DNA from: Candidatus Hermodarchaeota archaeon
GTDB taxonomy: Archaea; Asgardarchaeota; Hermodarchaeia; Hermodarchaeales; Hermodarchaeaceae
NCBI GenBank assembly: GCA_016839805.1
Contig: JAEOTO010000040.1
Location: 1-11,753, forward strand
DNA length: 11,753 nt
Reading direction: 5' to 3'
The notes under the pieces are model-generated. The model did no database searches. It saw nothing but the letters and a program-made list of their open reading frames with translations, and was not told the origin of the DNA. The translations under genes were made by a program, and so were the position numbers. Below, piece by piece: positions 1 to 11,753 of the stretch; the first letter of the stretch is position 1, and the number at the start of each line of letters is the position of its first letter.

Positions 1-1959
1 ATAAACCACTATATGGCTACAATTGGTACCAAGATTCCTGTTGAAATTCGGGTCCTAGGTTACTTTCCGACCCCGTGGAATGTCACCGATACGTTGAGCA
101 TCGAACGATATCTCGCCTGGATTCTTTCCGCAAGCAATGCATTCCAAGACCTGCAAATGGCAAATCTCATTGATACGTATGGGTTCCAAAGTGTCTTCAC
201 CGATCTTTTTCCTGAAATCCAATACAATGACCAATTCACTGTTCCTCCATCCACTCCCTCAACCAAACTAGTTAAAGTTGCTAATCAACTTGCATCCGAT
301 CTCCAAAAACTCCAAGAACTAAGCCCTATATCAAGTACGGCACTGCTGGGTAGTAATAGTTGGGTTATCAACGGATCACTCTCGGATACTGGTACGCCTT
401 TTCTTTGTAGTGACCCTCATTTGTCACTTACTACACCACCGGTTTGGTATGAAGTTCACCTAATAGGTCCCACCCATAACGTGCAGGGCATCACGTATGT
501 CGGAATTCCCTTTGTGTATCAGGGACATAACGCGGATATTGCTTGGGGGTGGACCGGAATGTTATCTGATGTATCCGATTTCTATTATTATACCTGGCAT
601 CCAAGTCAACCAGATCAATATTGGTGGCAAGGGAGTTGGTGGACAATCGAGCAACGGAACGTAACGATATGGGCTCGAGTTGATAATCAATTCGCCCCTA
701 TTGAAAAAGTCTTCAACTACACAGTTCACGGACCCCTCTTTGAAGAATCCACTGGAAGATTTGCTCTGAAATGGACTGGAGCCAATGGTTCTAAAACAGC
801 TGAAGCCCTCTACAATCTTGCCAAAGCTACAGATTATACCTCATTCCTCTTAGCGCTTGAAGACATCGAATGCCCCAACCTCAATTTCTTGTATGCAGAT
901 ACGAGTGGTAATATCGCTTATCATGCCGCAGCTGCACAACCGATTCGTGCACTTGGTTTAGGTCCTAGTCCACTTAATGGATCATCAGGCAGCGAAGAGT
1001 GGATGGGTTTTATTCCCTTTAGCCAACTTCCACAAAGCTACAATCCTTCCACGGGCTTCCTAGTAACAGCAAACAATCGCCTAGTCAATGCAACCTACCC
1101 CTACTATCTTGGATATAATTTTGCACCACCCCACCGAGCCAACCGTATTAGCCAACTCTTAAACGCATCCACAAGCCACTCAATCATGGAAATGCAAAAC
1201 ATCCAACAAGACATCCTATCACTAGATGCACTCGCCATCAAAGACATAATCGCCAGTGTTGTTCTAGCAGAAATTTCTGCATCAGAAGATCCCACGATTC
1301 ACGCCGCAGCGTCTGAGCTCTTAGCCTGGGATGGAGTAACAAGTCCTGATAGTATAGGAGCAACAATTTGGAGTAATTTCGTCTTCACCTATATGAATGA
1401 AACCTTCTTTGATGAATACTTCGTCGCTGACACCCCCGAAGGCCCCTACCCCTCTGTAACCGTACTAGAGAACTTCACCCAAATCAACTATGAACTATGG
1501 TTCGATAATGTACTCGAACCGGAAACACAAACCCGAGATGATATCATCCTTCTCAGTTTCGAAGCCACGGTAGAATTCTTAGCCAATAATTTAGGACCCG
1601 ACGTTATCACCTGGGAATATAATCTAATTCATGTTCTTTGGATACAACATCCCATGTCATCCAGCTTTCCCTATCTAAACGCTCCCCGATTCCCGATAGC
1701 AGGAAGTGAATACACGGTAAATTATGCCCCAGGTTATCTCGTCGAGTTCGGTGCAAGCTACCGACTAATCATCGATTTCTCCGATTTTGACAACTCCCTA
1801 GGAGTACTACCTGGTGGACAAAGATCCAATCCTTATAGTAACCACTATCTAGATCAACTGAGGTTATGGGTGGTTGGCGAATACCATCCTTTACCCTACC
1901 CAGCTACATTGGTTGAAATGACCCAATATGAATCCATTCTCGTATTAAGACCGGAGTGA
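1..1959 (+). CDS. Penicillin acylase / acyl-homoserine-lactone acylase family Ntn-hydrolase (peptidase S45), 5'-truncated by the window edge
   Basis: G|SNSWVING...PFLCSDPHL...PPVWYEVHL is the beta-subunit N-terminal nucleophile motif (Ser codon 352-354). GHNADIAWGWT, NFLYADTSGNIAY, GFLVTANNR, GASYRLIIDF and PGGQ..NPYSNHYLDQ are typical of the family. Frame 1 is open from base 1 (INHYM...), so the ATG at 13 is probably internal. Confidence 0.93.
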   Translation: MNHYMATIGTKIPVEIRVLGYFPTPWNVTDTLSIERYLAWILSASNAFQDLQMANLIDTYGFQSVFTDLFPEIQYNDQFTVPPSTPSTKLVKVANQLASDLQKLQELSPISSTALLGSNSWVINGSLSDTGTPFLCSDPHLSLTTPPVWYEVHLIGPTHNVQGITYVGIPFVYQGHNADIAWGWTGMLSDVSDFYYYTWHPSQPDQYWWQGSWWTIEQRNVTIWARVDNQFAPIEKVFNYTVHGPLFEESTGRFALKWTGANGSKTAEALYNLAKATDYTSFLLALEDIECPNLNFLYADTSGNIAYHAAAAQPIRALGLGPSPLNGSSGSEEWMGFIPFSQLPQSYNPSTGFLVTANNRLVNATYPYYLGYNFAPPHRANRISQLLNASTSHSIMEMQNIQQDILSLDALAIKDIIASVVLAEISASEDPTIHAAASELLAWDGVTSPDSIGATIWSNFVFTYMNETFFDEYFVADTPEGPYPSVTVLENFTQINYELWFDNVLEPETQTRDDIILLSFEATVEFLANNLGPDVITWEYNLIHVLWIQHPMSSSFPYLNAPRFPIAGSEYTVNYAPGYLVEFGASYRLIIDFSDFDNSLGVLPGGQRSNPYSNHYLDQLRLWVVGEYHPLPYPATLVEMTQYESILVLRPE

Positions 1960-1966
1960 TGAGAAC

Positions 1967-1973
1967 GAGGTGA
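1967..1973 (+). promoter_or_regulatory. Shine-Dalgarno site (GAGGTGA) for the 1980 ORF
   Basis: GAGGTGA ends 6 nt before ATG 1980; archaeal-type SD. Confidence 0.75.
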
Positions 1974-1979
1974 GAAATT

Positions 1980-2489
1980 ATGTCAGGTACATCCTATAAG
2001 GGTACAATTCGGGCATTCTTTGGGAAAACCCAACATCCCTTGATCGGATTACTCGTTTGTTATCTCCTAGTAATAATGATACAGTTTACTGGTATTGGAA
2101 TTGCCATCATCGTGGGTGGGATACTCGCAGGTTTACTAATAAAACGCACCTACAAAGCTATAATCGTCGGTTTTTTGGGTGGTTTCCTAGGATGGCTAAC
2201 GCTCTTCGGATTGATGTATGCTTTCAATCCTGCAGCATTCACCAATGCATGGTTTATCCTGACACCGCTTCTGCCAGCGCCACCCCTCTTTGTGTGCCTC
2301 GTCGGTGGCGTAATTACCGGCGTTGGTGGACAGCTCGGGGCACTCTTTGGTGAAATTGCGATTCGCCCGAAAGATGATTTAGGATTACCCCCAAGTCCAA
2401 CTGAACGGATTCCCACCGAAGAACTTCCCCGACGTAAAAGGGTGAAACGTAAACAACCGAAAAGAAAGAAGAAAAAGAAAAGATATTGA
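1980..2489 (+). CDS. Small Gly-rich integral membrane protein (about 4 TM) with Pro-rich linker and polybasic C-terminal tail; function unknown
   Basis: Strong SD and 20 bp downstream of the acylase. Hydrophobic GxxxG-rich helices (IIVGGILAGLL, IIVGFLGGFLGWL, LVGGVITGVGGQLGALF). Ends RRKRVKRKQPKRKKKKKRY. Confidence 0.85.
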   Translation: MSGTSYKGTIRAFFGKTQHPLIGLLVCYLLVIMIQFTGIGIAIIVGGILAGLLIKRTYKAIIVGFLGGFLGWLTLFGLMYAFNPAAFTNAWFILTPLLPAPPLFVCLVGGVITGVGGQLGALFGEIAIRPKDDLGLPPSPTERIPTEELPRRKRVKRKQPKRKKKKKRY

Positions 2490-2538
2490 ACACCGATATG
2501 CACTGCCAGAATCGGAAGACACATATATTTTCTGGTCA

Positions 2539-3204
2539 GTGGGCGACCGAGGCTTAACGGTGTCACCATCTCCTCCATCAGAACCCAATACCTCTACAGA
2601 CAATGAATCAATTGAGGAACTTATCCAACAACTTACTGCTGAAGATTCTGCCACACGATGCCATATCATCAAAACCTTAGGTAGGCTAGGACCAGAGGCC
2701 ACTAACGCCCTTCCATCTATCCGTAAAGCACTCAATGATCCTGATTTCAAAATTCGTCTTGAAGCAGCGATCGCCCTAGGCTTTATTGGTACCAAAGACG
2801 ACACCCACTACTTACTTCCCCTCCTCGATGATGAAGAAGAAGCAGTTCGATTCCAAACCATTAGTGCCATCGCTTTCCTTCGTGATTCACACGCCACGCC
2901 AGAATTACTCAAACGCTACGATCAAGAAACCCTTCACGTAAAAGATCAGATTCTGCGTGCCTTGGGTCATCTTGGGGGTGATGGAGTCTACGATCTTCTC
3001 CAACGGGAATTAACAGCAAATCACCCTACGCTGCGCACTGGAGCTGTGGTTGGATTCGGGTTTCTAGGAGATCCTAGTGCGTGTACACTCCTTCAGGAAG
3101 TTGCAGAAAAGGACCCTAACAGAATTGTTACCCATGAAGCACGAATAGCCATTCTCCAACTACAAGACTCATGCAATTTGGATGCCAAAAAAATCAAGAA
3201 ATAA
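2539..3204 (+). CDS. HEAT-repeat (PBS-lyase HEAT-like) protein
   Basis: About 5 repeats of roughly 31 aa, e.g. ALNDPDFKIRLEAAIALGFIG, LLDDEEEAVRFQTISAIAFL, HVKDQILRALGHLG, PTLRTGAVVGFGFLGD. Start uncertain (GTG 2539 or GTG 2560). Confidence 0.88.
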   Translation: MGDRGLTVSPSPPSEPNTSTDNESIEELIQQLTAEDSATRCHIIKTLGRLGPEATNALPSIRKALNDPDFKIRLEAAIALGFIGTKDDTHYLLPLLDDEEEAVRFQTISAIAFLRDSHATPELLKRYDQETLHVKDQILRALGHLGGDGVYDLLQRELTANHPTLRTGAVVGFGFLGDPSACTLLQEVAEKDPNRIVTHEARIAILQLQDSCNLDAKKIKK

Positions 3205-3214
3205 CCTCGTCTCA

Positions 3215-3260
3215 AGAAGAAGAATATAAAGAAAAATAGTGAGGCGGAGGATCACGCCTT
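3215..3260 (-). terminator. Putative terminator of the wHTH gene (short hairpin plus pyrimidine/T tract)
   Basis: Minus strand reads AGGCG-tgatcctc-CGCCT (3242-3259) followed by cactatttttctttatattcttcttctt, between convergent genes. Confidence 0.4.
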
Positions 3261-3277
3261 GGCATTACAACTTTTGT

Positions 3278-3520
3278 TTATGCAGCTTCGCTATTGAGGA
3301 GTTGTCGACCCTTATCGGTCAAGTCAAACCAAACGTGGTAGACCCCACGGCGTTCATTGATGAGACCGACCTGTGTGAGTCGTTTTAGGTGATAAGCAGC
3401 AGTAGAAGTGGGGATGTTAAGATCTTTGGCGATTTCACGGAGGAAGGCTTTGTCCTTTGACAGCTTGGTCATGATCCTCCTTCGGGTGTTGTGTTGGAGT
3501 GCTTCAGTTTTTGATATCAT
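3278..3520 (-). CDS. Small winged helix-turn-helix transcriptional regulator (ArsR/MarR-like)
   Basis: ALQHNTRRRIMTKL...LREIAKDLNIPTSTAAYHLKRLTQVGLI...FDLTDKGRQLL is a classic wHTH pattern. No Cys-based metal site is visible. Confidence 0.88.
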   Translation of the reverse strand: MISKTEALQHNTRRRIMTKLSKDKAFLREIAKDLNIPTSTAAYHLKRLTQVGLINERRGVYHVWFDLTDKGRQLLNSEAA

Positions 3521-3550
3521 CTTAACCGTGTTAATCTTTTAAGTAAAGAA

Positions 3551-3559
3551 GTATATAAG
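3551..3559 (-). promoter_or_regulatory. Candidate archaeal TATA box for the wHTH gene
   Basis: Minus-strand CTTATATAC about 30 nt upstream of the ATG at 3520, with no SD; consistent with a leaderless or short-leader transcript. Confidence 0.5.
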
Positions 3560-3594
3560 TGTAATGGTTTCCTCTTATACAAACCTATACAATT

Positions 3595-3615
3595 TCGTCA
3601 AAGGCTAATTGACGA
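3595..3615. promoter_or_regulatory. Operator-like palindrome TCGTCAA-N7-TTGACGA
   Basis: Perfect 7-bp inverted repeat centred between the divergent TATA-like boxes of the wHTH and permease genes. Confidence 0.5.
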
Positions 3616-3642
3616 GACACGCGTTAATCATTTATTTAAAGA

Positions 3643-3677
3643 CTTATAAAACCTTTATCGTTTCTTATTATTATAAT
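3643..3677 (+). promoter_or_regulatory. Candidate TATA boxes for the permease transcript (CTTATAAA at 3643-3650; TTATAAT at 3671-3677)
   Basis: Matches to the archaeal YTTAWA consensus in an AT-rich stretch; cannot tell which is used. Confidence 0.4.
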
Positions 3678-3854
3678 CTAAACAATTACATTCCATGCTA
3701 GTCAGCCAGAAACCAGAATGACAAAGTTCCGTTCTAAACTATTGAACAGCGCGTTCTAAGCCGTAGGATAATGTTGCGCCACGCCGCTATACTTGTTTAG
3801 TTTCATTACTTGAATCCAGATTATTTGAAACTGCTAATAAGAGGTGCAGCATAA

Positions 3855-4832
3855 ATGGGTCTACGAGAATTTGTCGTGCGACGCGTATTCAACAGCATCT
3901 TTTTGATTCTCGGAGCGATTGCCTTCAACTTCTTCATCTTTCGCCTAATGCCAGGGGATCCCGTAGCAATCCTCATTAGCGGGCAAATCGCGGGACAACA
4001 GGATATGGCTGCTGCGATTCGTACCCTCTGGGGATTAGATCAACCACTGTATGTGCAGTTTGTCCAATATTTTATCAACATGATAAATTTTAATTTTGGT
4101 CTGTCGTTTACGGAGGGTTTTCGACCGGTCATTATGTCCATCGCTGCGCGATTACCAAACACGCTACTCCTCATGGGAACTGCTGCCATCGTGACGATTA
4201 TCATCGGTATCATAACGGGCATTACGGCTGCTGCTAAACGTGGCGGGAAGACTGATATGGGGTTAGTTGTGGGGGCTTTAACCTTCTATTCGATTCCTAC
4301 CTTCTGGCTAGGCATGATGTTCATCCTTATGTTCGGATTCTATATCCCACTCTTCCCGATGAGTGGCACCATCTCTGTTCCAGCACCAACGGATCCGCTA
4401 GCGTATGCGTTGGATGTCGCCTGGCATTTAGTCTTGCCAGCGTTGACGCTTGCCCTTGTCTCCTATGGCGGGTATATGCTGGTGATGCGGAATAGTTTGA
4501 TTGATGTCTTGACTGAAGATTATATCGTCACTGCGCGGGCTAAGGGCGTCGATGAACGCTCTGTGCTTTACAAACATGCGTTACGAAACGCTATTCTCCC
4601 CTTAGTGACCATGATTGCGCTAACCTTCGGATTTCTCATTACTGGAGCCACATTAACCGAGACGGTGTTCAATTGGTATGGCATCGGGCGGCTGATTTTC
4701 GATTCCGTCCTGTCCCATAACTACCCCGTATTACAGGCCCTCTTCTACATCATGGCCCTCACCGTCATTATTGCGAACTTTATTGCTGATATGCTCTACG
4801 GCTTCCTTGATCCACGCGTCCGCTATGACTAG
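3855..4832 (+). CDS. ABC peptide/nickel transporter permease, OppB/DppB type
   Basis: N-terminal RLMPGDP...GLDQPLYVQF...NFGLS, RLPNTLLL, SIPTFWLG, HLVLPALTL, EAA loop EDYIVTARAKG...KHALRNA, TETVFNWYGIG and C-terminal DPRVR. SD GAGGTG at 3841-3846. Confidence 0.96.
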   Translation: MGLREFVVRRVFNSIFLILGAIAFNFFIFRLMPGDPVAILISGQIAGQQDMAAAIRTLWGLDQPLYVQFVQYFINMINFNFGLSFTEGFRPVIMSIAARLPNTLLLMGTAAIVTIIIGIITGITAAAKRGGKTDMGLVVGALTFYSIPTFWLGMMFILMFGFYIPLFPMSGTISVPAPTDPLAYALDVAWHLVLPALTLALVSYGGYMLVMRNSLIDVLTEDYIVTARAKGVDERSVLYKHALRNAILPLVTMIALTFGFLITGATLTETVFNWYGIGRLIFDSVLSHNYPVLQALFYIMALTVIIANFIADMLYGFLDPRVRYD

Positions 4833-4849
4833 GAAGAATCCCACAATGT

Positions 4850-4884
4850 GAACCAAAACGAAGGGCGGCTAACAACCGCCCTTC
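4850..4884 (-). terminator. GC-rich hairpin terminator between convergent permease and GNAT genes
   Basis: GAAGGGCGG(4860-4868)-N7-CCGCCCTTC(4876-4884) is a perfect 9-bp stem; on the minus strand it is followed by GTTTTGGTT. Confidence 0.6.
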
Positions 4885-4933
4885 ACCACTCTTCCAAATG
4901 GGAATGGAGGGGGAGAAGGTGCCTGCCTTTGAA

Positions 4934-5482
4934 TTAGGCTGGAAGGGTTATTGGGCGTTTATAGAGTTGTACGAGCATTCCGGGTGCTTGTTCGTAGGGA
5001 TTTCCGTGGGGATTGAAACCAAAGCTTTCGACAAGGGTTCGCATGGTTTCATGTTCCACGAGGATATTGCAGAGATTCGCCGAAGCGCCTATTTGCTCGG
5101 CATATCTGACAAATTGACGATACATGGCACGGACGAGGCCACGATGACGGTAATCAGGATGAACTGTTTGATGTTCACCGAGTAACCCTTCAGGGGTAAG
5201 TAGGGTTTTGTAAAAGCCGGCGAGGTGATTGTCGAATCGGGCTCCAAAGTAGTGGAATCCCTTTTTCATCTCACTGATGACCTGATCTGGGGTGAGAACA
5301 CGTTTTTGTCGCCAAGCGCGTGGAATATGGTCAGCCTGGGGCCACACAAGGGCTAGGAGTTTGGAGATTTCTTGGGCGTCCTTTTCGGTGAGTTCTTCGA
5401 TGTGGATGTCTTCGTCTTCGGGTGGAAAGTCTTTGATCTTCGGTGACATCGACATGGTAGAGAACCTTTGGGTTGAAGACAT
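4934..5482 (-). CDS. GNAT-family N-acetyltransferase
   Basis: Acetyl-CoA-binding motif A TVHPDYRHRGLVRAM, N-terminal IEELTEKDAQEISKL and C-terminal LVESFGF. Start moved from 5614 (which overlaps the rSAM gene) to ATG 5482; ATG 5455 or 5449 is also possible. Confidence 0.85.
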   Translation of the reverse strand: MSSTQRFSTMSMSPKIKDFPPEDEDIHIEELTEKDAQEISKLLALVWPQADHIPRAWRQKRVLTPDQVISEMKKGFHYFGARFDNHLAGFYKTLLTPEGLLGEHQTVHPDYRHRGLVRAMYRQFVRYAEQIGASANLCNILVEHETMRTLVESFGFNPHGNPYEQAPGMLVQLYKRPITLPA

Positions 5483-5501
5483 TTGAATGCTTGCTTTCTT
5501 A

Positions 5502-6632
5502 TCAGGTTTTAATAACCTCATAGGCTTCTTGGAGGGCTGTACATCCTCCACAGCGTATACATCCTGCGCGGTGAATGGAGGGATCAAGGTCGTGATCGTA
5601 GAGGAGCTGTGCACAATCTAGGTATACGTCGATGATCTTGTTGAGGTTATGGACATATGGAGGTATGTGACGTTCCAAGTGCGAACCAGGATTAGGTCGA
5701 TATGGGACTGGAACCGGAATCACTTCTGTTTCGATAGTGGTTTTGAAGCCCTGATAGAGTTGCTCAGGAGTCTCCCCCAGTCCAAGTAGAATGAAAGTGC
5801 TAACTTGCCCGCGACCAAAAAATGTTACAGCCGATCGCCATGCACCTAAATAGTCTGAGAAGCTCGCGTGTTGAAATTTACCAGGGCAGTATTTCTTGCG
5901 TAAAGTGTCGTCATAGATTTCGAGATGAATGCCAACCGTGTCTACGCCTGCCTCCTTTAATGCACGAAATTGATTGAATGATTTGGGAGGTTCGAGTTGG
6001 ACATGGATTGGAATATCACTGTGTTGGCGGAGTTTCGAAACGAATTCAATGTAATCCATTGCTCCTCGATCTGGACGTTTTGGGCTGCCTATGGTGAGAG
6101 TAAGGTGGCTGGCACGGCCTTCTTGTTGTGAAGCCTCGAGGACTTGAAGGAATTGTTCAGGGGATTTTCGGAGAGTAGTTCTGCCTAATTCAAGACTTAC
6201 AGGAATGCTGCAAAAGAGGCATTCTAGCCCTTCGTTAAAGTAATCACAATGTTGGACGAGAGTAGTAGCTAGGCAGTCAATGCCATGAACCAAGGCTATA
6301 TGTGACATCGGGGTGCCATCGTCTAGTTGGTATTGGTAATAGTGAGGAATATGGACGAGTGTAACCTCGAAGACTTCGTTGTCAAGGTTATTGATTTGAA
6401 ACCGATTTTCTGAGATTGGTTTAAGCGCTAAGGAATGAAACTCATTTGCCTGCTGGTTCGATCGAACTGGTGCATTAACGACAATCTTTTCATCTAACAA
6501 GAAATAGCGACCCAGTGTTGGTCCTGCACCCCCTTTTCGTCCCGTGTCTTCTTCTGTTAGGAAATGAACTCCTCGGGTGAGCATTGCTACTTTTCGTTTT
6601 AGTATATCTTGGGCTGAAGTTTGGGGGGACAC
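5502..6632 (-). CDS. Radical SAM protein, MSMEG_0568 / NitD (Nit1C cluster)-like family
   Basis: N-terminal GRKGGAGP, then IALVHGIDCLATTLVQHC with non-canonical CX8CX2C (C129/C138/C141; 6210-6248), PIHVQLEPP, GVDTVGIHLE, FGRGQVSTFILLGLGE, and C-terminal AGCIRCGGC (5541-5561). These match the family's motifs as I recall them. Confidence 0.88.
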   Translation of the reverse strand: MSPQTSAQDILKRKVAMLTRGVHFLTEEDTGRKGGAGPTLGRYFLLDEKIVVNAPVRSNQQANEFHSLALKPISENRFQINNLDNEVFEVTLVHIPHYYQYQLDDGTPMSHIALVHGIDCLATTLVQHCDYFNEGLECLFCSIPVSLELGRTTLRKSPEQFLQVLEASQQEGRASHLTLTIGSPKRPDRGAMDYIEFVSKLRQHSDIPIHVQLEPPKSFNQFRALKEAGVDTVGIHLEIYDDTLRKKYCPGKFQHASFSDYLGAWRSAVTFFGRGQVSTFILLGLGETPEQLYQGFKTTIETEVIPVPVPYRPNPGSHLERHIPPYVHNLNKIIDVYLDCAQLLYDHDLDPSIHRAGCIRCGGCTALQEAYEVIKT

Positions 6633-6709
6633 AGTTCTCGCCAGTGAAGTATATTCGTTAATTTACTGGTCTAAAAGTTTCGCTCTCACCATTTTCAACG
6701 AATTTTATG

Positions 6710-7684
6710 CTAATTGTTGGAATTCGTAGAGAGGGTGGATTTATATTCTTCAAAGAATTTTGAAAGGTCGACGTTTCCGCCACTTAAGATAATGCCGATG
6801 CGTTGGTTATCGATGTTCTCTTTGATTTTCAGGAGCCCTGCTAATGGCACAGCACCAGAGGGTTCAATGACGAGTTTCATCCGTTCCCAAAGGAACCGCA
6901 TGGCATCTAAGATTTCTTCTTCTGTTACAGTAATGATTTCATCAACCTTTTGCTGTATAATTGAAAAGGTGAGTTTACTCAAGGAGGTGCGAAGTCCATC
7001 AGCTATTGTGTTCGGATTTTCACTTGGGACAATTTTGCCAGATTTAAACGAGCGATAGGCATCATCTGCCCCTTGGGGTTCAATGGCATACACCATTGCT
7101 TTAGGACACAGACCCTTCGTAGCGATGGCTGTTCCACTGATGAGTCCTCCACCTCCAATTGGAGCCAACATCATATCAATAGCTCCTACTTCACTAATCA
7201 ACTCAAAAGCCGCAGTCCCTGCTCCAGCAATTACCCGAGAATCATCATAGGGATGAATGAGAATGAACCCATGTTTTTTGATTAGCCGTTTAACAGTACG
7301 TTCCCTCATTTCCATATTTGGTGTACAAAACTCAATTGCGGCGTCATAATCTCGGGTCGCAGCAATCTTGACAGGTGAAGAATTTTCTGGCATCACGATA
7401 GTTGCTTTTATTCCGAGCATTTTCGCTGCAAGGGCAACAGCTTGGGCGTGGTTTCCTGATGAATGGGTAATGACACCACGTTGTTGTTCTTTTTCTGTTA
7501 ATTGAGAGATTGCATTGTAAGCTCCACGGAATTTGAAGGCTCCGATGCGTTGGAAGTTTTCACATTTGAAGAAAATACTACAGTTGGTCAGGCGATTTGC
7601 AGTTAAGGAGGTCATGATTGGAGTCTGTATACTGGCTCTTCGGATCCGCTCATAAGCAGCCTTGACATCTGCGAATGAAACCAT
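6710..7684 (-). CDS. Fold-type II PLP enzyme: serine racemase / Ser-Thr or hydroxyaspartate ammonia-lyase type, no ACT domain
   Basis: FKCENFQRIGAFKFRGA (PLP lysine), THSSGNHAQA, PIGGGGLISG, IEPQGADD, TIADGL, IEPSGA and ILSGGNVD; 324 aa, catalytic domain only. Confidence 0.93.
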   Translation of the reverse strand: MVSFADVKAAYERIRRASIQTPIMTSLTANRLTNCSIFFKCENFQRIGAFKFRGAYNAISQLTEKEQQRGVITHSSGNHAQAVALAAKMLGIKATIVMPENSSPVKIAATRDYDAAIEFCTPNMEMRERTVKRLIKKHGFILIHPYDDSRVIAGAGTAAFELISEVGAIDMMLAPIGGGGLISGTAIATKGLCPKAMVYAIEPQGADDAYRSFKSGKIVPSENPNTIADGLRTSLSKLTFSIIQQKVDEIITVTEEEILDAMRFLWERMKLVIEPSGAVPLAGLLKIKENIDNQRIGIILSGGNVDLSKFFEEYKSTLSTNSNN

Positions 7685-7771: not shown

Positions 7772-7825
7772 CTTGGCATGAAGTGAGAATAGCTCTCTCA
7801 GGGTCAAATGAAAGGGTGTTTAGCC

Positions 7826-8767
7826 ATGTCAAATCGCATTGTTATTGCCATTGGCGGTAATTCTCTTATTAAAGATAAGGCACACAAAACTGTTCCCGAC
7901 CAATATGCTGCTGCTGAAGAAACCGTTCCGCATATCGTTGATCTCGTAGAACAAGGATGGGATGTGGCAATCACCCACGGCAATGGTCCACAGGTTGGAT
8001 TTATTCTTCGTCGGTCAGAACTTGCACGACATGAACTTCATGAAGTCCCCCTTGATTTCTGTGGAGCTGATACCCAAGGTGCCATTGGTTATATGCTACA
8101 GCAAATTCTCTATGCGGAATTTCAGCGCCGCAAGATCCAAAAACAAGCCGTAACCGTCGTCACGCAGGTTCTTGTCGACAGCAACGACCCCGCTTTTTCT
8201 CAGCCTAACAAACCAATTGGTTCATTTATGGATCAACAAACAGCAGAGAATCGGACACAAGATGGTTGGCATGTTGTCGAGGACGCAGGTCGGGGTTGGC
8301 GCCGTGTGGTTCCATCTCCTATTCCCCGTGAAGTTATTGAAGCTGGGGCGGTTGTAAATCTCATTGAAGATGGATTCGTTGTCATCACCGTGGGTGGCGG
8401 TGGTATTCCAGTAATTAAAACCGATGATGGACGATTGAAGGGTGTATCGGCTGTGATTGACAAGGATCGTGCCTCAGCTCTTCTTTGCAAAGCTATTGAT
8501 GCAAAGCGGTTCCTGATTTCAACTTCCATTGACAAAGTCTACCTGAACTTTGGGAAATCCAATCAACAACCCATTGATAAAATGACTCTCAGTGAAGCCA
8601 AACGGTACTTAAAAGAAGGGCACTTTGCCCCCGGCTCCATGGCGCCCAAAATAGAATCAGTAATCACTTTCATCGAAGATGGAGGCGAGCTCGCTATCAT
8701 CACCTCCCCAGAGAGCATGTCGCGGGCCCTGAAGGGTGAAGCGGGTACACACATCACTCCCGATTAA
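7826..8767 (+). CDS. arcC: Carbamate kinase
   Basis: IAIGGNSL, THGNGPQVG, ADTQGAIGY, DPAF..PNKPIG, EDAGRGWRRVVPSP, GGGGIPV, AVIDKD and GSMAPKIE. Start placed at ATG 7826 (SD-like AGGGTG at 7813-7818) rather than 7808. Confidence 0.97.
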   Translation: MSNRIVIAIGGNSLIKDKAHKTVPDQYAAAEETVPHIVDLVEQGWDVAITHGNGPQVGFILRRSELARHELHEVPLDFCGADTQGAIGYMLQQILYAEFQRRKIQKQAVTVVTQVLVDSNDPAFSQPNKPIGSFMDQQTAENRTQDGWHVVEDAGRGWRRVVPSPIPREVIEAGAVVNLIEDGFVVITVGGGGIPVIKTDDGRLKGVSAVIDKDRASALLCKAIDAKRFLISTSIDKVYLNFGKSNQQPIDKMTLSEAKRYLKEGHFAPGSMAPKIESVITFIEDGGELAIITSPESMSRALKGEAGTHITPD

Positions 8768-8836: not shown

Positions 8837-9667
8837 ATGATTACAGAAACTTTCGAGGAAGTTGCTCAATTTTCAAAGGAAGACATCAATTCGCTGCTTA
8901 GCCATATTCTGCCAATTCTCCATAAGGAACCACTACTCGCAAGCCTGCCTAAAACGCCACTTCTCTTCGTCGGAGATACCCATGGGGATTGGGAAGCCAC
9001 AAAAACTTTGTTAGCACGGTACTGGGATTCACCAACTACTTTTGTATTTTTAGGCGATTATGTGGACCGAGGACCCCACCAAATTGAGAATATAAATTTA
9101 CTCTTTAAACTGAAAACAAAAACTCCAAATCGATTAGTTCTCCTTCGAGGGAATCATGAAATTCCAAGTATCAATCGCTATTATGGTTTCTACGACGAGA
9201 TTCAGACCCACCTTGGGAATTTAATGAAAGGGTATTGGGACACCTTCGCTCATCTCCCGCTTGCAGCAATCAGCCAAGACTTCAAAATTTTTGCAGTACA
9301 TGGAGGGATTCCCGAGGGGTTAGACCAGATTGATGAGATCAACCACCTTCCTCGAGAAGTGGAACCCGAACATCCAGTCACGTTTCAGTTACTGTGGAAT
9401 GATCCAAAAGAAACACTGAAGGGATTTACAGCTTCCATGCGAGGTGGGCGTGCTCGCAACTTCGGACTCGATGTCACGACCGCATTCATGAATCGGAATA
9501 ATATTGACCTGATTGTTCGAGCCCACGAGGTATTTCATCACGGGTTCCATGAATTCTTTGATGGACGTATTCTAAGCCTTTTCTCCTGTCGAAATTACCA
9601 AGGACCTATAGCAGGTAAAGCTTTGTATATTAATCCAAATGGAGACCGAGAACTAACTCCGATTTAG
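8837..9667 (+). CDS. PPP-family Ser/Thr protein phosphatase (PP1/PP2A-like metallophosphoesterase)
   Basis: GDTHG, GDYVDRG, LRGNHE, VHGGI, LLWNDP, RG...FG, IVRAHE and LFSCRNY all present in order. Confidence 0.95.
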   Translation: MITETFEEVAQFSKEDINSLLSHILPILHKEPLLASLPKTPLLFVGDTHGDWEATKTLLARYWDSPTTFVFLGDYVDRGPHQIENINLLFKLKTKTPNRLVLLRGNHEIPSINRYYGFYDEIQTHLGNLMKGYWDTFAHLPLAAISQDFKIFAVHGGIPEGLDQIDEINHLPREVEPEHPVTFQLLWNDPKETLKGFTASMRGGRARNFGLDVTTAFMNRNNIDLIVRAHEVFHHGFHEFFDGRILSLFSCRNYQGPIAGKALYINPNGDRELTPI

Positions 9668-9679
9668 GTTAAATTATGC

Positions 9680-10027
9680 TCATGTTGAGCGAATGGCTTT
9701 GAGTAATTGGATTTGGGTAAAAGGTTTTTCTAAAAATTGGGTGCCCGTTGACTCGGCGACATCTTTCCCAAGGAATTTAGTTCCCATTAAAATAATTGCT
9801 AATCCTTGTTTTTTCAAACTGGAGATAAAATCACTGGTCATAGAGCTTCCAAGCCAGTAATCAAATAAAATTACCTTAGGAGGCGTCTCACTTGCATCCA
9901 GAGCATGTCGAAAGGCATCTATCGTTTTAATGCCAGGACAGACGTCATATCCTGACTGCTGAAGGAGTGATTCAAGGGATGAACGCAGAGTATCAAGCGG
10001 GGTTATGACCATGACAGCTGTTGGCAT
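9680..10027 (-). CDS. Stand-alone atypical receiver (CheY-like) domain protein
   Basis: PKVILFD (D56), IILMGT and FLEKPF...LLKAI fit the receiver pattern; the beta1 acidic pair is replaced (VITP instead of IVDD). SD-like GAGGAG overlaps the upstream stop. Confidence 0.85.
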   Translation of the reverse strand: MPTAVMVITPLDTLRSSLESLLQQSGYDVCPGIKTIDAFRHALDASETPPKVILFDYWLGSSMTSDFISSLKKQGLAIILMGTKFLGKDVAESTGTQFLEKPFTQIQLLKAIRST

Positions 10028-10040
10028 CCAGCATTTCTCC

Positions 10041-11753
10041 TCATTTCGCTTTTTTCGGGGTTCGTTTTTTTCGTGTCCTTGAACGTTTCACGCTGGGAAT
10101 TAATATCTGAAAGACTGTTCCGTAACGCGGATCATCTAAAACGATATTTTTCACGTAAAATTTACCACGGAAATAGTTCACTAATGCCGGTACGACTAAA
10201 AGATTCGGAACCGCTTTTTGAGGTTGTTCGGTGTCAGAGCGGAAGAGAAGAACCTTTTCGACATCAGATAATACCCATTTGGGATGGGCGATCTCTGTTT
10301 GCCAATATTCAATTTCAAATTCTGTAATCTTTGAAAAAGTGACATCAATCGTTGCCGTACCACCTACATCCTGCCCCAATGTTAATCGGAGAAGTGGTTG
10401 AAAAATTTGTCCAAGATAATAATTAGCTAACACTTGACACTTTTGTGCTGGTAAGGAGAGGTTGATTTGACCTGTGGATTCAGGAACCAATTCTTGGAGT
10501 TCATTAATTACCGCCGCTACTGTGGAGCACAAGTCAATCCGCGAAAATTCTGGTAGGGCCTGTGCATCGATGAGTCGCAACAATTGAATACTTTTCATCA
10601 TATCTTCAATTTCATTTACTTCAGCTTGTATCATACCAAAAAAGTGCTTATGTTCTTCTTTGGTAGTTGCTAATCCCCCAAGTTCAGTAAGACTGAGAAT
10701 ACTTTGAATTCTATTTGTAATGGAGTTACTAAGAATTGCTAGGTAGTAATCCAGATTGGTTAATTGAGAAGTTGAAGGCTTTCGGAGTCTGTGTTCTGTA
10801 ATGGTAAATCGGCGTAACTCAGCCCGGACACGACTTAACTCCTCAACAAGGGAGGCATAGCTATCAGAAACCTCTTGTAATTCAGCAAAAAGCAGTGCAG
10901 GAGGTTCATTGTAAGAAATAATACCAGGTTCTGTAACAGCACCAGTTTCAGCTTCAAGACCTTCTAAGGGTTGATAAAGTAACCGGGAAAGATAGTAAGC
11001 TGCACTTCCACTGATAAGGATAAGTACAGCAATCCCCGCTATCAGTCCTCCACTAATAGTATGTAAAGCAACCATCACATCCGAAGGTGACAAATAAACA
11101 AGTAGAACTCGACCGGTAATGGCAATAGCAATAGTGCTAATTAGGATTAGCACAACTACCAAGGAGAGGACTAATACAACGCGGGTTACAACAGGGTATT
11201 TGATTGAGATGGAGCGAATTGTTGCCATTTTTTCTAGGGTTTCGGTGAAAATAGTGAGAATCGCAATGAGGAAGGTGAAGATGGCAAATAATGAAATGAT
11301 GTCCGATAATGATCCAGAATAGAAGAATGCTGAAATCAAAACATAACCGGAGGCGTATTGAACCGCAAATACTGTATAACCTACAAGGAGGATTAGGCTA
11401 GCAAGAACTAAGAGAAACCGGCTTAATCGTCCAATAACCTCTTTGGGAGGATTCTGATTGAAATAAAAGCTCCAAGCAAAAATTGCGGTGAAAAAACCAA
11501 TAAGAACGCGAAGTCCCGAACCGATTGCGGGAAAAATTGGGGGATGGAAGGTTAAATTCAGCTGATACACTGTTAAAATACAGGCCAGAAAGAAGATTAT
11601 GATTAGAAGATAGCCTCCAACCTGTCGCCAGGATTGGCGCCGTTGCTCAATCGAGACTAAGGCAAATCCGACGAGTAGCACTATATTTGCTATTGCTGCA
11701 AGATAGCTAGAGGCAGAGGGATATGAGACTGGTAGACCAAAAAAGAGGGTTTC
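10041..11753 (-). CDS. Multi-TM membrane sensor with HAMP-like linker and degenerate histidine-kinase (DHp + HATPase-like) module; 5'-truncated by the window edge
   Basis: Frame is open to base 11753 (ETLFFGLPVSYPSASSYLAAIANIVLL...). At least 7 hydrophobic helices, then LSRLLYQPLEGLE...ELQEVSDSYASLVEEL (HAMP-like), LAILSNSITNRIQSIL (H-box position), IDLCSTV, LANYYLGQIFQPLL (N-box position), EKVLLF (F box) and GKFYVKN..DDPRYGTVFQILIP (kinase C-terminal strands). Confidence 0.8.
   Translation of the reverse strand, partial: ETLFFGLPVSYPSASSYLAAIANIVLLVGFALVSIEQRRQSWRQVGGYLLIIIFFLACILTVYQLNLTFHPPIFPAIGSGLRVLIGFFTAIFAWSFYFNQNPPKEVIGRLSRFLLVLASLILLVGYTVFAVQYASGYVLISAFFYSGSLSDIISLFAIFTFLIAILTIFTETLEKMATIRSISIKYPVVTRVVLVLSLVVVLILISTIAIAITGRVLLVYLSPSDVMVALHTISGGLIAGIAVLILISGSAAYYLSRLLYQPLEGLEAETGAVTEPGIISYNEPPALLFAELQEVSDSYASLVEELSRVRAELRRFTITEHRLRKPSTSQLTNLDYYLAILSNSITNRIQSILSLTELGGLATTKEEHKHFFGMIQAEVNEIEDMMKSIQLLRLIDAQALPEFSRIDLCSTVAAVINELQELVPESTGQINLSLPAQKCQVLANYYLGQIFQPLLRLTLGQDVGGTATIDVTFSKITEFEIEYWQTEIAHPKWVLSDVEKVLLFRSDTEQPQKAVPNLLVVPALVNYFRGKFYVKNIVLDDPRYGTVFQILIPSVKRSRTRKKRTPKKAK

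Follow-up and report, generated by a model that had tools for sequence, protein, structure and literature searches.

A putative pseudo-histidine kinase and its co-encoded pseudo-receiver in Hermodarchaeota as a candidate signalling pair without phosphotransfer

Can a two-component system persist as a signalling device when both of its proteins have lost residues of the phosphotransfer chemistry, or is such a pair on its way to becoming pseudogenes? The question is raised by two adjacent genes on contig JAEOTO010000040.1 of the Candidatus Hermodarchaeota archaeon assembly GCA_016839805.1 (2.3 Mb in 50 contigs, G+C about 44%). The window analysed here is the whole of this contig, 11,753 bp, and is called C31 below. 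Its minus strand carries a gene for a kinase-like membrane protein, the sensor (10041-11753), and directly downstream of it a gene for a single-domain receiver (9680-10027). We propose that the two form a maintained pseudo two-component pair, in which a sensor dead for phosphotransfer is read by an equally dead receiver through binding and shape change, and we regard this reading as probable rather than assured.

Both frames are free of stop codons. The receiver open reading frame (ORF) encodes 115 residues from an ATG, and the sensor ORF, which we take to be that of a pseudo-histidine kinase, contributes the last 570 of 667 codons and the stop, its 5' end being open. The sensor TGA and the receiver ATG are separated by 13 nucleotides (nt; 10028-10040, minus strand) that start with GGAG, 9 nt before the ATG, so that the ORF list and the spacer agree with the initial annotation, which had described two uninterrupted, co-oriented ORFs 13 bp apart with a Shine-Dalgarno sequence. 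The sensor is cut at its 5' end because the window is an entire contig. The last 127 nt of C31 are identical to the first 127 nt of contig C18 of the same assembly, on which positions 2-418 encode the first 139 residues of the sensor, including the 97 codons that lie outside the window. The reconstructed protein of 667 residues has the length of a database protein (P0003) that is identical to it at all 570 window residues (570/570) and, the GTG start aside, shows two differences over the first 139.

Whether the sensor is a histidine kinase homologue at all was not evident from routine searches. Pfam gave no HisKA, HATPase_c or HAMP match at E<=10, and the kinase models of NCBIfam reached only 12-16 bits. 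Against PDB sequences, the single sequence returned one irrelevant match (E 0.84) and a profile of 19 orthologues returned no kinase at E<=1, and it is only through the modelled fold that homology to solved kinase structures becomes visible. Alignment of the family by hhalign with P0048, a kinase of dCache-HAMP-HATPase_c architecture, gave a probability of 97.5% over 305 columns that run from the last transmembrane (TM) helix through HAMP, the dimerization and histidine phosphotransfer (DHp) domain and the catalytic and ATP-binding (CA) domain. An AlphaFold2 (AF2) model of the sensor, built on an alignment of 35 sequences with a mean predicted local distance difference test (pLDDT) score of 81.9, led by Foldseek to HK853, WalK, CusS, DivL and RetS at E~1e-8, with target template-modelling scores (TM-scores) of 0.63-0.77 for cytoplasmic kinase fragments. 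VIA-align gave Z 21.3 for DivL (root-mean-square deviation 2.8 over 215 residues) and Z 19.9 for HK853. In this fold check, which had been named beforehand, the cytoplasmic region has the DHp/GHKL fold.

The layout of the sensor departs at one end from the TM-HAMP-DHp-CA order first ascribed to it: the DHp/CA fold and a HAMP-like unit stand, and the input is no simple membrane anchor. Up to residue ~350 the model contains ten long helices that coincide with ten hydropathy peaks and indicate 10 TM helices, of which the window encodes the stretch from the end of TM3 to TM10 (residues 98-350, 10995-11753; this and all further sensor and receiver coordinates are on the minus strand). A HAMP-like helix-connector-helix unit follows (residues 351-414, 10803-10994), recognized by hhalign and AF2, with a conserved Pro359 and Glu388 and with modelled helices reaching to 371 and spanning 387-414. 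The hhalign path crosses the Pfam-defined HAMP of P0048 (363-411), although the sensor itself has no Pfam HAMP match at the threshold given above. A linker (residues 415-425, 10770-10802), marked by invariant columns and low pLDDT, leads to the DHp-like hairpin (residues 426-493, 10566-10769; helices 426-457 and 462-493) and to the CA-like GHKL-fold domain (residues 494-651, 10092-10565; alpha/beta domain 501-651 in the model). For the TM domain, Pfam gave no known family, and an atlas search with residues 1-360 (best score 0.76) gave no lead. In a wide VIA search, in which the kinase part dominated the hits, residues 40-268 found only designed helical bundles at Z 12.5-12.7, values within the range expected of helical bundles and therefore uninformative on the fold. 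The protein ends in a basic tail (residues 652-667, 10044-10091, KRSRTRKKRTPKKAK) that varies among orthologues, being acidic in some, and is absent from the sister genus introduced below, which makes a conserved regulatory site there unlikely.

Does this kinase-like region retain the means of phosphotransfer? It was aligned in 19 of the 24 relatives found by a cluster search, the five truncated ones (420-539 residues) being excluded, and the H, N, G1 and G2 boxes, all reported lost from the window protein, are indeed replaced in 19/19. The H-box reads LSNSITN against LAHDISN of canonical Asgard kinases. Asn440 (AAC, 10725-10727) occupies the position of the phospho-acceptor His, as Asn does in 19/19 aligned orthologues, which follow the pattern L(S/N/G)N(S/T/Q/A)xx(N/S). 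In the N box NLLRNA has become PLLRLT, with Pro550 and Leu554 at the replaced positions; the first Asn survives in 1/19 orthologues, and Leu (18) or His (1) stands in place of the second. The G1 motif DxGxGI has become HPKWVL (His587, Lys589, Val591), its Asp being His in 18 and Asn in one of the 19, and G2 has changed from GLGL to PNLL at 613-616 (orthologues, (N/S/G)LL(L/V)), with GLGL absent from all 19. The replacement residues N440, H587, K589 and W590 are themselves invariant or nearly so. Because the His is gone and every ATP-contacting motif is replaced, the sensor should be able neither to autophosphorylate nor to donate a phosphoryl group, and it has probably lost ATP binding. On its residues it is a putative pseudo-histidine kinase in the sense of Collins and Childers, a kinase homologue short of at least one kinase function, kept by selection and part of a signalling network through binding of a receiver or a kinase (PMC12632262).

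The family to which the sensor belongs is narrow. The 24 relatives, drawn from 5.8 billion protein clusters, are 55-100% identical to it, none has a precomputed Pfam domain, and database sources assign them to Promethearchaeota or Hodarchaeota (Asgard archaea). When the profile of 19 full-length sensors was searched in 400 genomes of the phylum, full-length matches were confined to the family of the window's own organism. Within its genus (15 genomes), 13 genomes including that of the window have a whole or large sensor match, one has a fragment at a contig end and one has none; in the sister genus three of four genomes have a match, and the class consists of only these 19 genomes. The remaining profile matches (E 4.7e-24 to 9e-4) span only positions ~430-660, and the eight of these that were checked proved to be canonical kinases, scoring 58.9-77.3 bits with HATPase_c. 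Among 1.84 billion representatives, 1887 proteins matched the profile at E<=0.001, but only seven did so at E<=1e-30.

Among these relatives the kinase motifs fade by degrees. P0038, a metagenomic protein of 607 residues with the same TM domain, keeps LLSHEIRN, NLLRNA, DRGLGI and GLGL and scores 56.6 bits with HATPase_c. In the sensors of the sister genus the His is Tyr or Ser, the first N-box Asn and the G1 Asp are kept and G2 is lost, with HATPase_c at 27.6 and 30.4 bits. P0035, P0036 and P0037, which have no Pfam match, carry Asn, Arg and Tyr, respectively, at the His position. The NCBIfam PnpS score falls from 61.9 bits in P0038 through 50.7 in the sister genus to 12.6 in the window sensor. 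A quick maximum-likelihood tree of 38 C-terminal segments (~240 residues), rooted via paralogues and with Shimodaira-Hasegawa-like approximate likelihood-ratio test (SH-aLRT) values as its only support, sets the family apart from canonical kinases (98), with P0038 as the first branch, the pseudo members grouped together (93) and long stems leading to both genera; P0041, at first labelled canonical, is placed within the sister-genus clade. Judged by these sequences, the best explanation is that the sensor descended from a canonical 10-TM/HAMP histidine kinase of which P0038 is a surviving relative with all motifs, and the pattern would fit a single event in which the His was lost, after which the position drifted. 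Two metagenome scans found no genomic context for P0038 or P0035-P0037, and a scan of genome contigs, made with a pattern that these proteins do not match, gave only seven loci of the two known genera.

Is the pair maintained, then, or is it decaying? Ratios of nonsynonymous to synonymous substitution rates (dN/dS) were calculated by the Nei-Gojobori method for 10 sensor and 12 receiver genes. Only the four closest pairs (dS 0.23-0.75) are quoted because dS was saturated in the others, and three of these four share genomes and hence are not independent. For the sensor dN/dS is 0.07-0.11 over the whole gene, 0.04-0.09 in each of the DHp-like and CA-like parts and 0.06-0.11 in the TM domain; for the receiver it is 0.09-0.24. 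Values this low in both genes argue against decay, and with substitutions common to 19 sensor orthologues and 49 receiver clusters they bear out the initial view of a maintained pair. None of the sequence-level outcomes that could have overturned that view has emerged, and we consider maintenance under purifying selection, as opposed to decay, well founded. A system decaying toward pseudogenes might be suspected from the loss of every sensor catalytic motif and from one metagenome-assembled genome (G105, locus L013) in which the sensor match lies in two frames, covering profile positions 2-590 and 591-666 with the last ~76 codons shifted, a split that could reflect either a genuine frameshift or a misassembly. 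Decay is already contradicted by intact frames in 12/13 loci, by 55-85% identity between species at dN/dS ~0.1 and by the near-invariance of the replaced motif positions themselves, and we judge it extremely improbable. In another metagenome-assembled genome (L010; G096:C73, 13-3489) the upstream M28 peptidase and the sensor share one open frame of 1158 residues (1426 in the profile search), which might reflect a gene fusion, the loss of a stop codon or faulty assembly.

The second partner is likewise a recognizable member of its fold with an altered active site. Against Pfam Response_reg (PF00072) the receiver scores 25.0 bits, under the gathering cut-off of 30.2, and the three canonical receivers of the same genome score 78.8-83.5 bits. 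Its AF2 model (pLDDT 87.4, predicted TM-score 0.81) takes the (beta-alpha)5 fold, in which alpha4 is short, and superposes on CheY4, RR468 and PhoB with TM-scores of 0.72-0.82. In the alignment, Thr9-Pro10 (9998-10003) take the place of the acidic pair (VITP against IVDD of the genome's canonical receivers), the phospho-acceptor Asp56 (9860-9862) and Lys101 (9725-9727) are kept, and Gly82-Thr83 (9779-9784) fall, by alignment and model, at the Thr/Ser position. Residues were counted over 49 family clusters of 46-100% identity, three of them lacking the N-terminus. The acidic pair occurs in 0/46, its first position (DD1) being Ser, Thr or Ala and its second (DD2) Pro, Ala, Ser or Thr, while Asp56 and Lys101 are each present in 49/49. 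Hence the acidic pocket, which had been described as lost, is lost as regards the acidic pair, and the acceptor Asp and the Lys have remained. At the end of beta4, Gly (48) or Ala (1) is followed by Thr (42), Ser (3) or Asn (4); the hydrophobic pattern aligns Gly82 with Ser/Thr, and in the AF2 model it is Thr83 that ends beta4.

Two further features of the receiver concern invariant residues. Helix alpha1 bears an Arg15 and a Glu19 that are invariant in 20 aligned receivers (positions on the helix from the AF2 model). Canonical receivers dock on the DHp domain through helix alpha1, as seen in the HK853-RR468 structures. Also invariant in the 20 sequences are Cys30 (9938-9940), which belongs to a VCPG motif where beta2 ends, and the Gly two residues on; this Cys is expected to lie beside the degenerate acidic pocket, and the canonical receivers of the genome have no Cys there. 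Pro never occurs at D+4 nor Gly at D+8 in the receiver clusters, and many pseudo-receivers likewise lack them (PMC12632262). Bourret et al. (2025; PMC12632262) define a pseudo-receiver as a receiver fold from which at least one of DD, D, T and K is missing; the present protein, in which two of the five active-site residues (DD) are absent, is on its sequence such a pseudo-receiver, the class of aspartate-less receivers being ruled out by the invariant Asp56. Since both metal ligands are absent, receiver chemistry implies that it should not catalyse its own phosphorylation (PMC12632262), and phosphorylation of the receiver is, in our estimate, unlikely.

How firmly do the two genes belong together? 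Within the genus the receiver gene lies directly 3' of the sensor gene in 13/13 loci, and where both gene ends are unambiguous (nine loci) the two are -4 to +14 nt apart. The receiver is a single-copy gene: 12 of the 14 other genomes of the genus have one strong match, always at the sensor locus, the two genomes that have none also lack the 3' end of the sensor, and one genome (G098) has an additional weak match (E 3e-3). This linkage bears on a different assignment of roles, in which the function resides in the 10-TM domain, perhaps as a transporter or an enzyme of the membrane, while the kinase-like tail is a relic with a structural or dimerising use and the receiver is an unrelated neighbour. 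The TM domain belongs to no known family and is as conserved as the rest of the protein by dN/dS, which would suit such a function, but selection on the DHp-like and CA-like parts is at least as strong and the receiver accompanies the sensor at every locus of the genus. The wide structure search also yielded no transporter fold, a weak point since the kinase part dominated that search. We consider a mere relic joined to an unrelated neighbour improbable.

Based on these data we put forward a mechanism for the pair that dispenses with phosphotransfer. The 10-TM domain would sense a signal within or at the membrane, and relay of this signal through the HAMP-like unit would alter the conformation of the DHp/CA-like module. 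This module, no longer an enzyme, would present a regulated docking surface, and in the genus of the window that surface may be read by the presumably co-transcribed single-domain pseudo-receiver. The pseudo-receiver would thereby be bound, released or reshaped and would pass the signal to a further target by protein-protein contact; signalling would thus run from membrane to receiver. That the DHp-like and CA-like parts and receiver helix alpha1 are so strongly constrained suggests that the old phosphotransfer interface may have become a regulated binding interface.

Several observations weigh against this mechanism. Contact between sensor and receiver and independence of phosphorylation are both something that we infer from residues and gene order, and the sensor's loss of ATP binding from residues only. 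The modelled disorder of residues 410-425 (pLDDT<50), between the HAMP-like and DHp-like parts, appears ill suited to helical signal transmission, and at one of the 13 loci stands the split sensor frame described above. The invariance of Asp56 and Lys101, with Thr83 mostly kept, indicates that the phosphorylation site could still be in use, and the genome also encodes four clear canonical kinases along with its three canonical receivers. In the sister genus the sensor gene abuts a gene for a Metallophos phosphoesterase with no receiver gene between (3/3 loci), and a profile search found the receiver family in none of the four genomes (0/4, 80-83% complete), so that the sensor must have a role independent of the receiver. 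The same finding leaves the term co-degenerated in the initial annotation unsupported: a partly degenerate sensor with the same synteny exists where there is no receiver gene, and the losses in the sensor are therefore either older than its association with the receiver or unconnected with it. For the receiver itself, no canonical ancestor was found.

These points lend themselves to another explanation, that the sensor acts mainly on other kinases, as a heterodimer or scaffold with the canonical kinases of the genome in the manner of RetS-GacS or DivL-CckA, the receiver being a still-phosphorylatable target or sink. The sister-genus sensors that lack a receiver, the presence of canonical kinases and receivers in the genome, the invariant D56 and K101 and the standing of RetS and DivL among the nearest folds would all be in keeping with it. 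It is countered by the loss of both metal-binding acidic residues in 46/46 clusters, which removes the Mg2+ for phosphotransfer (PMC12632262), and by the fact that the receiver is never found apart from the sensor. We regard such action on other kinases as unlikely, and retain the binding-based pair as the preferred reading.

The linker and the convergent gene at the 3' end of the locus suggest a third possibility, namely that the module has been rewired to Ser/Thr phosphorylation, with eukaryote-type kinases and the adjacent metallophosphatase using the sensor as a substrate or platform, for example at the RRFTITE linker or the basic tail. Sensor residues 405-428 (10761-10832), RAELRRFTITE.RLR.PSTSQL, have 11 columns invariant in 19 orthologues and include an Arg-Arg-x-Thr motif, so that this largely invariant segment is also one in which disorder is predicted. 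The Metallophos gene (8837-9667, plus strand) ends 12 nt from the receiver stop codon, and in both genera it converges on the sensor locus. Convergent genes form no operon, however, the class of the phosphatase rests on a weak ApaH-like match (32.9 bits against a cut-off of 176), and the basic tail is unconserved in sequence and missing from the sister genus. A Ser/Thr-based module of this kind seems to us doubtful at best, and we return to the binding-based pair in placing the locus in its surroundings.

The Metallophos gene is preceded by a carbamate kinase gene (7808-8767, plus strand; 410 bits), and both genera share the order sensor, Metallophos, carbamate kinase. The remainder of the window, within 1-7684, encodes a penicillin amidase (cut at its 5' end), a HEAT-repeat protein, an ABC-type permease, a GNAT acetyltransferase whose gene overlaps a radical-SAM gene, and a PLP-dependent enzyme. 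Contig C18 (523-5751, locus L031), on the upstream side of the sensor and in the same orientation, encodes a STAND-like AAA ATPase with a winged helix (386 residues), a Ras-family small GTPase (191 residues, Pfam Ras 193 bits), a protein of 402 residues without a family and an M28 peptidase (690 residues). The same order recurs in the sister genus (L054), with a radical-SAM-like gene added, and the stretch is also present at L033, L034, L037 and L003, in the last of which, from a single species, the sensor is directly preceded by the GTPase gene. The family-less protein, 402-409 residues across both genera, has no Pfam match, and its atlas matches were to helical eukaryotic families at low recognition (1494) that we do not trust. 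PADLOC gave no match for the sensor, the receiver, this protein, the GTPase or the phosphatase and only weak matches for the STAND-like ATPase. Some 6.5 kb upstream of the sensor (C18, 6963-7985, L031) lies a TnpB/Cas12f-like gene with OrfB_IS605 and Cas12f1-like TNB domains.

This neighbourhood invites a wider speculation to which we attach a low probability, that a signalling island conserved in these Asgard archaea has the pair as its membrane-proximal end, where the pseudo-receiver, as an adaptor, couples a bacterial-type membrane sensor to small-GTPase signalling without His-Asp chemistry. If this were true, a prokaryotic module would have been repurposed for eukaryote-style, binding-based signalling, and its canonical, intermediate and dead members would form a natural series.

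How does the pair compare with systems already described? The best structural match to the sensor is DivL of Caulobacter crescentus (PDB 4q20), which also combines the DHp and CA folds with the absence of a phospho-acceptor His; it has Tyr where the sensor has Asn, and sequence identity is 13%. DivL reportedly receives its input through PAS domains, in contrast to the 10-TM domain here, and its partner DivK is a true phosphorylated receiver, whereas the partner gene of the sensor encodes a pseudo-receiver. RetS of Pseudomonas aeruginosa (PDB 6dk7/6dk8) has a kinase region close in fold to that of the sensor (Foldseek E 4.6e-8, VIA Z 16.7) and is said to work by binding another kinase rather than by phosphotransfer; it differs from the present sensor in being a hybrid kinase, equipped with receiver domains and with a sensor in the periplasm. 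In plants, ethylene receptors of subfamily 2 and phytochromes keep kinase-like and receiver-like parts without His-Asp transfer. Plant pseudo-response regulators are receiver-like components of two-component ancestry (PMC12632262). These plant proteins form no operon pair, several act via Ser/Thr phosphorylation, and none has a specific kinship to the sensor family.

The literature offers precedents for each half of the proposal. A single-domain receiver docks on, and is sensed by, the kinase-like module of DivL (PMC4211667). The archaeal kinase relatives MsmS and RdmS ('MA_type 2') of Methanosarcina acetivorans resemble the sensor in lacking the H-box and have no autokinase activity, but they bind and hydrolyse ATP and are cytoplasmic orphans, (PMC11784639), whereas the present sensor is a membrane protein in which the N, G1 and G2 residues are gone as well, and it comes with a partner gene of its own. 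Pseudo-histidine kinases are a recognised class, with ~0.9% of HisKA domains lacking the His; several percent of all receivers are pseudo-receivers, and among archaeal receivers 10-15% are without the Asp (PMC12632262). That review states that its authors knew of no functional study of an archaeal pseudo-receiver (PMC12632262), and one His-less Asgard kinase, KKK40347.1, is mentioned in passing elsewhere (PMC10343646). Word searches, which cannot catch an unnamed family, found no paper on the sensor-receiver family. The description of the pair as an undescribed system accordingly holds for the family, and pseudo-histidine kinases and pseudo-receivers as such are already described kinds (PMC12632262). 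What is new is a lineage-specific family with an uncharacterised 10-TM input, in which His and ATP site have both been lost, a pseudo-receiver is encoded as a dedicated partner and a canonical relative survives.

The essence of our proposal is a pair in which both partners appear dead for phosphotransfer and are nevertheless tightly linked and strongly selected, which makes the family a clean test case. Natural controls are at hand in P0038, with all kinase motifs, and in the sister genus, which is intermediate and has no receiver. Pseudo-kinases and pseudo-receivers are common in databases and poorly understood, and on present evidence the pair reveals no new principle. Nevertheless, the family could show how a two-component system turns into a binding-based switch, in the archaeal group that is closest to eukaryotes.

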